From Aplysia californica (Eukaryota): 64,000 nt of DNA. The notes below the pieces were generated by a model that made no database searches, was not told where the DNA came from, and saw only the letters and a list, made by a program, of their open reading frames with translations. Positions within the stretch are counted from its first letter, which is position 1. Each line of letters starts with the position of its first letter. Below, one piece after another: positions 12,850 to 19,200 of this stretch. The stretch is from NCBI RefSeq assembly GCF_000002075.1, contig NW_004797285.1, positions 239,862 to 303,861 of the forward strand. The letters are read 5' to 3'. Both the position numbers and the translations under genes were made by a program.

Positions 12850-13147
12850 TTTCAACCAATCAAAAGCTGTATATGATTCACACCTGAACGTTTTCCTTTC
12901 TGTGATTCGTCCAATCGTATAGCTTCTATGTGTGCCGGCAGATTGAAAATTTAGGCCAGGCCCTGCCAGTAGCCAGGCGCTGTTTTGAGGCGTTCGAGTC
13001 TGCAATCAATTCCACTTTCCTTGTTCGTATTTTAGGTGTTTCTTTTCAGCCCATCATCGGGAAAGATTTTGTATTTTTATGTTATTAAGAAAATAATTTT
13101 ATAGGCCTATATCTGACGTACGTTGTTTTTTTTTTTATAACCTCCAG
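12850..13147 (+). promoter_or_regulatory. Probable TPX2 promoter and 5' UTR region with two CCAAT boxes
   Basis: CCAATC at 12856 and 12911, CHR-like ATTGAA at 12942, local GC/CpG rise. The acceptor at 13147 implies an upstream non-coding exon. Confidence 0.45.
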
Positions 13148-13155
13148 CCTGAGCT

Positions 13156-13246: not shown

Positions 13247-16200
13247 GTAAGTTTTAGATTTTTAACATAAAAAAGGTGAATTCTTACAGCAAATAGTCTA
13301 GATAGATCAAGATCTATAAAACTGCTCTCAGTCTCAACTGTATAATGTGTGTTTGTGTGTGTACAAATTCAAAAACTCGGCAGGCGTCAGCTGAACTTTA
13401 CTGAGACTTCCTATGTTGTTGTAGGAAGTGGGGAAAGCCTCTAGAATCTCGAGGCCGAGGCGGGAGGAATCCCGTAACGAACGACTACTATGAAATAGGG
13501 TTGGGTACGTTAGGGTAACGGTTAAGGCTAGATCTAGGGTTAGGTCAGGGTTTGGGGTAGGGGTAGGGTTGGAAGGTCTCCTGCCTTTATTATTGTGTTT
13601 GTTGGTGGGGTGGTTGCTCGTTTCGCAAGTCCCAAAAGTACAGCTGATCCCCAATCCAATCAAACGCCAAAACCCATCACACCATATGTAGATTAGATCT
13701 AGATATCTAGACTAATCTAGATTAGATCTAAATTTCTCTATATCAAATAGCTTACAAACCAAACTTGCACAAAAAATCAAGGCGAACAAAAATTCAACAA
13801 AAGAAAACGGAGTGGTTATCCATACAAATTGTACGAAGTGCGCGGGTATCCATACCATAGTAGGCCTGCATGCCCACAGGCCTACTACCTACATGTTCTG
13901 TCTTAGTAGATCTAAAAATCTAGATCTAGATCTAGATCTAGATCTAGAATGATTTTAAGTGTGTACCATTTCAGATTTCAACAACCACGAGAAGTTAATA
14001 AAAAATCATTTTAAATCGCACTGGTCGGATTTCAAAAGTCTGAACAGTTCTTCTTGAACGGCGTCAATAGTTGGTGTCGCCACCTCATTTGACCAAACTT
14101 TTGGCACAGCGTCAAAGCATGGCCAGGACATGCCTTTGGAGAACTTGTTGCGGTAGGTTCTGCCACTCCTGTGACTGTACGAGGTAGCTCAAGAGTTGTT
14201 GAAGGTTTATGCAGGAGAGTGGTTGTCCCTTATCCACCGGTCAATGTGATCCCAAATGTTCTCTAGATCTACAGGGTTGAAACTCCGACTAAAAGCTGGC
14301 CAGTCCATACGGAGGACACCTTGCTGCAGCAGAAAGTCCCCCGCGATACGTACTCGATGTGACGTGGTGTTGTCATCCTGCAGAGAGGAACAGCAAGGGG
14401 TTGTAGGATTTCTTCCCTGTACCGTACCTTGCTGCGTTTAAACAGCCCTGTATATTGTACTGGGGGGTCCTGTGGTGAGCTGAGAAGCCTCCACACACCA
14501 GAACGGGCCCTTGGCAGCAGATTGAATCTGGATTTGTCCGAGAAGACTGCCTGGTCCCACTGACGTTGTGTCCACTGTGAATGGCGAGCAGACCACGCCC
14601 AACGAGCTGCTTTGTGGGGTGGCGTGTGTCTTGGGCGCCTGGAAGGGACTTGAGAAGCGAACTTGGCTCTACGGAGATGGTTCTTCACCTCGCTCACGTG
14701 GACATTGTCACCCGTAACTGTAACTGGCCCCCGATGCGGTTTGTAGTGGTGGTTCGTGACATCACAGCCTGTCTGACGATGAACCGGTCGATGCTGTCGC
14801 TGGTCAAACATGGCACCCTTCTGGTCGCTCGCCGTCGTTCTTGTAGCCTTCATATATGACTGAACGGGAGACCCCAAGTCAACATGCAATGAGTCGGAAC
14901 GTGGTGGAGGCAACGAGCGTCGTTGGGCCATCTTGTTATAATGAAACATGGCTGAAAAACGCTGGCTTATAAAGGGTTGCATGCATGTGAGCGATATTCA
15001 CAGCCAAGACATCTGTTAAGCACGTGCCAAGCAATATAATAACGAAGTAGCTAGCCGTACTTAAGTAGGGCTAGACTGCCAGTCTAGCCATACTTAGTTC
15101 TAGGTTTGGCCCTATCGGCTCAAGTCTGTTAAGTACACAGGTCTCATTAGATCTAGATCTAGTAATTATTCAGGTTCAAATACATGCAAGTCAGTAAGGC
15201 ACCTTTTGGTTTTGTCTAAAATACAAATACTTTAGGCATTGCAAACTAAAAATTTCATTTACAATTCAGCCATCAATATTAAGTACGGCTAGCCTGACAG
15301 TCTACCCGTACTTAAGTACGGCTAGACAAGAAGTCTAGCCGTGCTTAGTCTAGCCGTACTTATCTTAGGTCCTATTAACATTAGAAAACAGGTTTAAAAT
15401 ACATGCACAGTCATTAAGGCACCTGGTTTCGTCTCAAATACTTTAGGTACTGCACACTAAAAATGTAGGCCTATTTTTGGTAAATGGTCAGTCTAGCCAT
15501 CATATTAAAAATAAGTATGGCTAGCCTCTTCCATATAATAATATCAAGCAGGGGAGGGGGGAAATTCCGTTAAGGCAGGTTCGACTGCAGTACTTTATGC
15601 TTGGTTGGGTTTAAGCGGGGCAAGGAAAGGCCCGAACTTGGATACAGCGGGAGGGATTCTTGAGTGAATTGTATCTGGGGGAAAGGGGTTGAGCTGTAAG
15701 TAGGCTCCAAAAAGGCAGTCAGCGGTGCGACGTTGTGGTTGGCCAGTCCAGTGATGTAAAAGGGGGGGGGGGAGCAGTTGCCATGCACCTAGCTCAAGGG
15801 GCCCCCGAAACTAAGTACCCGGTTACTGTGTACATAGATACTGATGCTATGTGCCTGCTTACCGTGTACATAGTCACTCCCTTACATTGTATAGGATTAA
15901 ATTTAAAATTGCTGGGGCGTGTGGTGACAAATCACTAACCAACTCGGTCCTTTCAAAAGTGCCTTCAAAATCAATCATATGTCAATAGAGATGGGACTAG
16001 GCCTATAGATAGGTCTACTAGATCTAGATCTAGCAATGTCATGCACAGTCCATTTTGTATACAAACCTTTTTTGTCACATGATAATGTGCCGCATTTGTG
16101 ATTGTCAGTGGCTCCACTGACACTACCACTGCTCTTCTCCTTCTTTGCCCTTTCCTATCCTTCGATATAGCCTTTACCTTAGCCTATATTAGTCCTTTAG

Positions 16201-19200
16201 GTTTCATCCCTCAGTCTCTGTACATACTGTAACTCTGTAAGTTGTTTAAACTGTATATATATATAAGCATTCTACATTGGTGAGGTTTTCCTCATTGTCC
16301 CTTCTTGTGAAAGCACCATCACCTGCTGATCATCCTCATCCAGGTGAGACAGACAGAGAAGTGAGGCAGCAGCTGTGATGGTGCGGAGTACAGATGATGG
16401 TGTTGAGGGTCTACTTGATGTTGAAGAATGGTCCCAAAATGTCCTTTCCTTCTTTTCTGAACCCCCATTCTGACAAATCGAGCAGTTTGCTAACTTGCCC
16501 TCTAATACTGGTGACAGCGTAGTTGATCTAGATCTAGCCATATGTGAGCGTTGATTGGAATTTTATTGATCATTTAACCCACCTCAGGTCACAGTTGAGA
16601 CTTTTTGTCAACTCCAAATTGTTTCCAGCTTGGTATGCTGTCATCTGTTGCATCATCACAGCATTGTAGGCACCAGTCATTGTTGACTGGTGGGCTTGAT
16701 GCATTCATTTTCTTTCGTGTGGGTACTTTTTACACTGGGGGCAAAACGATAGTTTTTGTTACATGAAGCTACAGCGAGCACCTAGCACACCTCTGTGATT
16801 GCCCCAAATATAGATGACATATTTCTGCTATCTATTTTTCGTTGTCTGCGGGGTTTCCCCCCAAGACTCTTTTAGGTTTCCCTTGCCGGTAACTGTGTAC
16901 TAGGTCTTGCTAAGTTGGGTTTTTTTTTTCTTTTGGTATTAATTTGTGCTATCTTTTATAATATAAACACTCTCAGCGATTCTCGTTCCATAAATTTACC
17001 CTCTCCTCAAAATTGCCCACACGCACGCGCACACACAGCCCAAGCAGTCGGCGATGAAACCTAGTGGCGTAGCCCACCTTGCACTAATATAATGGGGCGC
17101 CAGTTACGGTGAGATCTGGTCAGCTGGCGAGAGAAGCATTTGGGAAGCCCTGGAAGACGACAAAAATAAATGGTGGAAATACGTCATCTGTGTTTGGGCC
17201 AATCATAGGTGTGCTAGGTGCTCCCTGTAACTTCATGTTTTTGTTGCATTCTGGTTCGGTTCCCATCTGGAGTCATGATAAAAAGCAAGAAAATTGTAAG
17301 CCTTGACCTTGCTATAGCATTAAACTGCATTTGGTGATGCTGAAAGGTGCATCTTAGGGTAGGGTTTTGTTGGGAGGTTGCAAAAATCTGAAATTGTCAA
17401 AATTTGGGCGTAACCATTTAAATCACGTTTCCGTGTAATTATCTGTTATCTTGTGTTTGTGGAAATGCGACCCGACATATTACGTTTTTAAAACCACTTG
17501 TTTCGTTTCAAACTGATCAGTAAGTCATTACCCAGACGAAGAATTCATTTATCTTTGACTGTCCAGTCAAACTAAAGGCTTGTTAGCTCGTACTTTTTTG
17601 TATTCGGCCCATACCATAATACATAACTTCGCATCGGACGGTGGTACCGTCCAGCCATGGTTACGGACCTAGACTGCCGGATGCTGCCATCGTCCAGACA
17701 TGGTTAGGTGGATTGCTTGTGGCAACGATGATATGACTTCTCTGGCAAATGCCTTCCCTTCTCCCTTTTTCCCTGTGCCTCCATTACCGTTCCCATATTT
17801 CTTAAAAGTATTGCATCCGGTGTTGGAGAAAAAAACTTATGAAATTACCAGCCTTTCATATTTTATAATTTCCCAGGCATGGAGGATGACATTCCTTGTG
17901 ACGCCGATCAAAAAGGTGAGTACAGCTATCCCATTTTAAATGAATTAGTTATAAATTATTTAATGACCAAATACAGATCTATGTTCTTTAAATTTTAATT
18001 TCATAGATTTAAAACTAAAACTTAGCAAATTGAAATAGAGACATAATGTGGTTTAAGAGTTGAACTCCTTTTTTTTCTTCATATATTTCATGGATGTGAA
18101 TGTTAAAATAATCTTAAATTAACGGATGTACAATTTTAGACTTTAAAAATTGTTACTGCTTCTATTTTTTTCAAAGGTTGTTCCTCTCTTATTTATTAAG
18201 TTATAAATATGTATATTATTTTTTTGTTTACTGCGTTTCCTACTAAATAGACTCTGATTCATTTTTCCATCTGCTTATATCTTTTCCATCTGCTTATATT
18301 TATTAAATTATAATATTAGTGAGGTGTTGGCTTATTCTTAATTCATAACAATACAATGGGACTTTTCTAGAGTCTTCTGGATAATATTTTTTTGAAATAA
18401 TAAAAGTATGAGTTTATATTTGTGTTATGACTAGTTAGTAACAGTTGCTTCAGTGTTTAAATGATTTAGTTGTTGAATGAAAGTTGCCTTTTTTTCATCT
18501 ATTTCGAAATAGATGGAATGGCCAGAAAAGCTGGGAATGGAATTCCTGCGAAACCTCAAAGAGTCAGAGTACCGAAGTCAATGGGTAAATATTACTGTGA
18601 TTTTTATAGAGATGAGAGATATGACCTTGTAAAAAGTCTCGGGCTTTTTGTGATTGCTGTGGAAACAATTAAAAAATACAGATTCTTGCCTTAGTAATTG
18701 TTCCATCATTCACTATTTGAATCCGAACAGTGAGTTAGTGATTATTCTTCTTTCTGTTTAGGCCTGTATTGTCAGTGTTACAAAGGTCTTGGTAGCTGGC
18801 TGTCAGCAGTTTTTTACTTTATTGTACAGGTTCAGAATGACTGAATGCTTTTTCAATACTTTTAACAACTTTGGAGCAACATGTGATATGACATGTAAAA
18901 CTTATGTTTTTAAAATGCCTTAGTCCTGTATCGTGTATAATGTATACCATTACCAGGTTCACACTTTGCTTTAATGCAAGTTTTTAATACTACAATTTTC
19001 GAAACAAAGGGTGCTTGTGTAACTTGGCGTTTTTAGTTCTGCCAACGTATGGCACGGTATGGTGAAAACTGATGAATGGCCCCTTGTATGCAGGGAGACA
19101 ACTTTTTCAGGAGAAGCATAAATGTTTTCACTAACTCTTCTATTATTTACTATTTAGCTATAATTTAGCACAGAGATCTGATCAAACTGTTCATAAACCT

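Follow-up and report, generated by a model that had tools for sequence, protein, structure and literature searches.

What has placed the same two short palindromes, time after time, at TA dinucleotides around the start of a single gene? In the stretch of DNA analyzed here (the window: 64,000 nucleotides of contig NW_004797285.1 of Aplysia californica, positions 239,862 to 303,861), the words TAGATCTA and TAGGCCTA, in which GATC or GGCC stands between two TAs, crowd at the 5' end of TPX2. We conclude that TA-GATC-TA is very probably the end-joining scar of a low-copy, pogo/Fot-like cut-and-paste transposon family with the ends TA/GAGT...ACTC/TA (slashes mark the element boundaries), because these donor ends spell GA and TC and six of 12 of them adjoin a scar.

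TAGATCTA occurs 17 times in the window (overlaps counted) and TAGGCCTA eight times, where Markov models of order 2 and 3 predict 0.66/0.70 and 0.45/0.48, respectively. An earlier note on this DNA had estimated a background of one to two of each 8-mer per 64 kb, which is a little above the Markov values (0.45 to 0.70). Every position listed in that note carries the word it named, although its TAGATCTA list omits the second units at 15154 and 16025. Collapsing of arrays left 20 loci, 12 of which fall within 13102 to 16537 (3.4 kb), in agreement with the earlier observation that more than half lie in about 3.5 kb at the TPX2 5' end; when loci were placed at random on the TA sites of the window, a 3.4-kb stretch of such density came up in none of 20,000 trials. 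The gene is indeed TPX2, its protein in the window being P0011, which carries the label TPX2 of Aplysia californica. Its 5' end is defined here by coding exons, and positions are given relative to the ATG, not to a mapped transcription start.

Two sites in the window bear on the nature of the units:
13955 to 15032, reverse strand: decayed Tc1-like transposon remnant, host of the 14264 scar.
14264 to 14271, unstranded: private change of TA to TA-GATC-TA (+6), filled in 0 of 38 homologues.
43932 to 43939, unstranded: TA-GGCC-TA insertion in the tail of a dispersed repeat, filled in 0 of 4 homologues, of which only 1 aligns without a gap.

At 14264, 37 of the 38 homologues of the Tc1-like remnant are empty of the six extra bases in ungapped alignment, 21 of them with a TA at the site, which bears out the earlier view that there are true insertions among the units. 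Apart from these two sites and from 15148 and 15466, the window sites had no usable homologue among the genome stretches compared. On a larger scale, 727 scar sites in 1.65 Mb of the genome, a sample biased to hot spots, were collapsed to plain TA and searched for empty copies. An empty paralogous allele was found for 47 of them, some of these rows being low-complexity or array-on-array matches, and four single-unit GATC or GGCC rows were removed as their "empty" allele was a scar array. In one repeat, the unit at a given position is GATC in one copy but GGCC in another, and at one site GCC, CATG and GATC units stand in series. TA-GATC-TA and TA-GGCC-TA are real six-base insertions at TA.

Such insertions might also arise without any transposon, if short palindromes prompt template switching or slippage. 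Both words are self-complementary, a TC precedes the TA at 14264, and same-unit pairs far outnumber mixed ones among adjacent units in 1.32 Mb (133 GATC-GATC, 13 GATC/GGCC), all of which this explanation has in its favor. However, 16 of 18 polarized single-unit GATC insertions and six of eight GGCC insertions lack a templating flank, a GATC unit occurs at a CT-TA-TG site (one of the first 100 listed among 890 matches), and other TA-palindrome-TA words stay near expectation. The scarcity of flanking templates, together with the alternative units found at one site, argues against template switching for first units, which we consider largely refuted, while slippage may lengthen existing arrays. 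As a full explanation, it is very improbable.

Analysis of the whole genome revealed 177,062 TAGATCTA and 52,570 TAGGCCTA units (overlaps counted), and the four-unit (TAGATC)n array has 2,150 matches. The control words for the array and for the TAGATCTA count are rotations of the array and so not independent, and that for the TAGGCCTA count (9,622 matches) contains CpG. The genome-wide enrichment that the earlier note had expected is also seen in 20 stretches of 10 kb picked arbitrarily (165 kb after removal of N), with 64 TAGATCTA versus 2.2 expected and 10 TAGGCCTA versus 1.0; the word TACATGTA occurs there 17 times versus 3.8. Clustering is general, with a variance-to-mean ratio of 4.8 across 78 bins of one 200-kb stretch, itself chosen for its clusters. 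The GATC and GGCC classes have hot spots in common and form mixed arrays in 6-bp register, and CpG content, judged by eye, left no clear mark on the clusters. Unit counts overstate events, as some units arrived with host repeats. In the window, 15148 (six of eight homologues filled) and 15466 (three of four) are filled in most homologues and thus arrived with a host repeat, so that the earlier interpretation of the 8-mers as footprints needs correcting on this point: some clustered units do not mark a local event.

A DDE_1 profile search of the genome gave 123 matches, of which 22 were examined, 12 loci across 5 kb each and 10 only as 0.9-kb pieces. The 12 loci contain six complete elements of 3,663 to 4,526 bp with TA/GAGT...ACTC/TA at 12 of 12 ends, and a seventh locus, L306, has a TA/GAGT left end. 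TAGATC directly adjoins six of these 12 donor ends versus 0.58% of TAs in the arbitrary sample (binomial P = 3e-11), and it adjoins none of 87 Tc1 ends and none of 25 mariner ends (0 of 112 together). Among the further donor ends, one adjoins GAATC and two adjoin GAC, and one element (L307) lies at a site without scars. The copies are 95.7 to 99.7% alike, with open frames of 876 to 938 amino acids. One type of their terminal inverted repeats (TIRs) has 33 matches genome-wide, 32 of them ending in ACTC/TA, versus one match for a control. The earlier note had called for TIR elements with TA flanks and GA..TC termini, and elements of this kind do sit inside GATC arrays. Its attribution of both words to TA-targeting elements is supported for GATC, with a likely resident GA..TC donor, but no GG..CC donor was present among the loci examined. 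Just past the right end of one element, a partial second copy of the donor's left part was observed (L300:1-410), with a GATC scar between the two; this copy may be a nested or local re-insertion.

The donor transposases carry the Pfam domains HTH_psq, HTH_Tnp_Tc5, DDE_1 and a C-terminal PHD finger; L299 has HTH_psq plus HTH_Tnp_Tc5 and L298 has HTH_Tnp_Tc5. Membership of the pogo superfamily follows from DDE_1 (PF03184, E value 1.7e-19) with a DDxD triad, TIRs and TA flanks. The catalytic spacing is DD35D in L299, L300, L301 and L303 and DD36D in L297 and L298, and HTH_psq and/or HTH_Tnp_Tc5 combined with DD35D is the mark of Fot/Fot-like elements (PMC7386202). The TIRs are imperfect and about 15 to 28 bp long: similarity of the donor ends fades past about 28 bp, earlier in L297 and L298, and so falls short of the 40 to 60 bp given for most members of that group. 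The transposase of L303 (G000:C325) bears the public-database label "coiled-coil domain-containing protein 86-like" (P0001). Relatives were found in another sea slug, with the same three domains, and in a coral.

The series of scar shapes is consistent with variable cutting plus end processing, which would give the length variants present: the outer two bases are constant and the middle is variable. In the 1.65 Mb, GATC occurs 751 times (21.9 expected), GGCC 194 times (10.7), GGC/GCC 286 times (93.3) and GGGCC/GGCCC 27 times (5.6). GAGTC/GACTC, the 3+2 product of GAGT ends, reaches 36 versus 13.2 expected (9 versus 0.3 in hot spots), GAC/GTC units are likewise enriched, and the 3+3 form GAGCTC is not enriched (2 versus 1.7). 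At isolated sites, the target context is S-TA-S for GATC, G-TA-C for GGCC and R-TA-Y in AT-rich DNA for the CATG class, the pattern expected of three transposases. The last class serves as an internal control, with TA-CATG-TA and TA-CAG-TA both enriched and obvious donors in the common TA/CAG elements. That the words are instead selected protein-binding sites in promoters is barely credible. They do cluster near a gene start, and the similar word TACATGTA appears in papers on the promoter motifs found in an oomycete (PMC3520976, PMC11134190), but the words enter decayed transposons and tandem repeats as insertions and are accompanied by a graded length-variant series typical of break repair.

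The proposed mechanism combines observed elements (insertion at TA, flank independence at most sites, the elements with their ends and intact frames, and their position in arrays) with steps borrowed from Tc1/mariner chemistry, namely TA duplication, two retained end bases, fill-in and joining. An element would land and duplicate TA. On excision, the inner cut would mostly fall two bases inside each end, leaving about two element bases (GA) on the donor ends, and repair would fill and join these ends to give GA plus TC between two TAs. A three-base cut on one side would produce GAGTC or GACTC, and an added A or T would produce GAATC or GATTC; the latter is the weakest step, since these forms are commoner than GAGTC, with an unsampled family as the alternative. 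An earlier model with a 3-nucleotide GAT overhang was dropped, the third donor base being G. Each scar would regenerate TA in the C-TA-G context favored by the GATC class, and as new TAs are offered in this setting, repeat hits would build arrays, which slippage possibly lengthens. Donors inside GATC arrays and mixed arrays in 6-bp register fit well with the earlier suggestion of repeated hits at a regenerated TA. TA-GGCC-TA would result from a parallel process driven by a GG(G)-ended sister family landing at G-TA-C. The choice of target, possibly guided by the PHD finger, together with renewed use of old scars would account for the clustering at gene 5' ends.

Eight zinc ligands and two tryptophans of the PHD finger are invariant in five copies, and its sequence matches are mostly readers of methylated lysine 4 of histone H3 (H3K4). 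The two tryptophans align to a tyrosine and a tryptophan of the BPTF core, which we take to be aromatic cage residues. Scars upstream of first coding exons are mildly enriched: the 6.5 kb upstream of 40 Ras-family first coding exons, out of 44 (two lay too near a contig start), had 0.56 scar loci per kb, versus 0.32 downstream (upstream higher at 27, lower at 8; P = 0.009) and 0.34 in the 20 arbitrary stretches (one-sided P = 0.008). This excess gives no more than indirect backing to the earlier idea that the clustering records open chromatin in the germline. PHD-guided promoter targeting is a tentative hypothesis, somewhat short of an even call. Local hopping plus re-use of old scars, with no promoter preference, could also yield the clusters. 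Donors sit inside scar arrays, local hopping is known for the Tc1/mariner group (excerpts of PMC2874221), the Ras-family upstream clusters lie at scattered distances with several genes lacking any, and two of the 12 TPX2 loci were carried in by a repeat. Against this stand the upstream excess in both comparisons and the window itself, where no donor copy or remnant was found. We consider this explanation, which is compatible with the donor assignment, a serious possibility, if a rather doubtful one.

Several points weigh against our interpretation. GAATC/GATTC (128 versus 14.4 expected) and GATATC (33 versus 1.8) are not spelled by GAGT ends and need non-templated A/T or an unsampled GAT-ended family. 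The 33 ends matched by one TIR type would demand a very long or very active history. No empty paralogue of any donor landing site was found, and we infer both the TA duplication, from the ends, and the excision. None of the 22 (of 123) DDE_1 matches examined was a GG-ended donor, and none turned up in 50 of the 150 DDE_3 matches listed, 30 of 150 Transposase_1 matches or a 1.3-Mb scan. With its TC, 14264 would on its own fit template switching as well. The PHD model (mean predicted local distance difference test score 76) has its top two fold matches in the H4-binding MLL3 PHD6, followed by AL1 bound to trimethylated H3K4 (H3K4me3). Lastly, the 5'-end enrichment is about 1.7-fold, with first coding exons as a proxy and a downstream control that includes exons. 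The GAATC/GATTC and GATATC forms, the scar-free site of L307 and the inspection of only part of the transposase matches leave room for another element or enzyme as the maker of the scars, with the GAGT pogo elements merely favoring CTAG-rich arrays. We regard this as quite improbable: the donor ends spell exactly GA and TC, GAGTC/GACTC is enriched, and no other TA-flanked GA-ended element was present in the 1.3 Mb scanned or at any of the Tc1, mariner and Harbinger-type loci inspected.

Other elements were considered as donors and rejected. Tc1 families end in AACT, CACT or CAG, and the Tc1-like remnant that hosts 14264 belongs to a family with TA/AACT ends. Mariner has CGAG ends, an IS630-like element has TAGTTT ends, and Harbinger families duplicate TWA. 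A hAT-like 1.9-kb element (G000:C1:253930-255848, within L052) has TAGGCC tips that resemble the GGCC scar, with an 8-bp duplication that does not fit, and Sailor has GT/CC tips and TATA (excerpts of PMC8533490). ISL2EU (PMC4482050, as excerpted) is similar in that a young family here has AGA...TCT tips able to spell T-AGATCT-A; however, it duplicates AT, not TA (A/AT/T, as empty sites show), whereas the scars arise at TA with free flanks, and the predicted scar AATAGATCTATT occurs 0 times in 1.32 Mb. This ISL2EU family (L186:2030-6648, L187, L206-L226) gave 21 pattern matches in about 10 loci, with copies 99.2% alike and open THAP-HTH-DDE and YqaJ frames. The IS630-like DDE_3 element (L247:695-5085) has long repeats in sub-terminal position, a second, nested copy and a 271-bp tandem made of its end.

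The features of the TPX2 locus and the dispersed sites are as follows; entries are unstranded and called from the sequence itself unless another strand or basis is given:
13102 to 13109: TA-GGCC-TA scar, 54 bp before the TPX2 ATG, with no homologue to polarize it.
13156 to 13246, forward strand: TPX2 first coding exon, 100% match to P0011 residues 1-30.
13247 to 17878, forward strand: TPX2 first coding intron; the second coding exon begins at 17879, and 11 of the 12 clustered loci lie inside the intron.
13529 to 13536: TA-GATC-TA scar, unpolarized.
13689 to 13730: train of TA-separated units GAT, GATC, GATATC, GAC, ATC, GAT, GATC.
13907 to 13946: GATC scar at 13907 plus a four-unit (TAGATC)n array at 13921-13946.
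15062 to 15500 (approximate bounds): high-copy repeat resembling a miniature inverted-repeat transposable element (MITE), from read depth.
15148 to 15161: GATC array in the MITE-like repeat, inherited, from homologues.
15466: GGCC scar in the MITE-like repeat, from homologues.
15998 to 16032: GGCC scar at 15998 plus a two-unit GATC array at 16019-16032.
16529 to 16536: TA-GATC-TA scar.
4888 to 4895: dispersed GGCC scar, with one homologue filled too.
8870 to 8877: dispersed GATC scar.
26911 to 26918: dispersed GATC scar.
27298 to 27305: dispersed GGCC scar.
37564 to 37571: dispersed GGCC scar.
50396 to 50403: dispersed GATC scar.
55855 to 55862: dispersed GGCC scar.

The train at 13689 to 13730, with unit types that are enriched in hot spots or overall, is likely the product of repeated landing and exit at one spot. 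No Pfam or PDB match was obtained for the 30-amino-acid first exon of TPX2. Across 12290-13886, contigs from three public runs exceed the window by 16 bases (16 gap letters), a difference that may or may not stem from segregating scars; no RNA record was listed as covering the stretch. Inside TPX2, 36490-40818 is a 4.3-kb segment bounded by 181-bp imperfect inverted repeats, with ends that lack TA flanks. Two MITE-like elements lie at 11081-11669 and 5537-6020, the former with TA/CAG ends of the kind expected to leave TA-CATG-TA. Transposase-like frame fragments were present inside and beyond TPX2, at 26477-27154 and 53336-53731, the second with a weak zf-BED match.

Comparison with known systems places the scars close to Tc1/mariner footprints. 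In the excerpts of PMC2874221, Tc1/mariner insertion duplicates TA and end joining leaves element bases between two TAs; TA duplication, element-derived bases between TAs and local hopping are thus common features, whereas those footprints are described from single excisions and here about 230,000 fixed units, arrays, and GA and GG tips are found. Passer, a DD35D pogo element, shares with the donor the TA target and short TIRs (<30 bp), leaves 0- to 4-bp footprints and favors gene 5' ends and start sites without a PHD finger (PMC9976928, as excerpted). It differs in its Brk-type DNA-binding domain and its transposase of 400 to 500 amino acids, the donor having HTH_psq, 876 to 938 amino acids, a low-complexity linker and the PHD finger. 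Fot/Fot-like elements resemble the donor in DD35D, HTH_psq plus HTH_Tnp_Tc5, TA among the targets, and size and protein length within range, whereas PMC7386202, in its excerpted sections, lists no animal hosts and gives 40- to 60-bp TIRs for most members. PMC7325037, as excerpted, refers to an oyster subgroup within Fot1. The term "phd" is absent from the main texts of PMC7386202 and PMC7325037, whereas the donor carries such a finger. We found no title that describes these words as genome-wide scars, or their scale, arrays, GA-tipped donor or PHD finger (subscription journals and Repbase entries lay outside this search), and no paper joining PHD finger, H3K4me3 and pogo transposase insertion preference. 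The chemistry is already known; the GATC donor is new.

These results link one of the most over-represented 8-mers of a genome to a particular transposon family, low in copies and still intact; promoter motif searches in Aplysia californica would otherwise read the word as a binding site. They imply that very high cut-and-paste activity can hide behind low copy number, as there are thousands of scars for each resident end found. With its PHD finger and its label as a coiled-coil protein, the transposase points to a candidate chromatin-targeted transposon that has been overlooked, and its relatives in a sea slug and a coral make the link between donor and scar testable across genomes. A few dozen PHD-bearing pogo transposons, steered to active germline promoters, might have written more than 100,000 six-base scars by repeated landing and leaving, with sister families acting alike in many aquatic invertebrates, a proposition to which we give slightly less than even credence. 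If true, promoter chromatin would be mapped in heritable form by the scars, which would also contribute heavily to the small insertions found in regulatory DNA.

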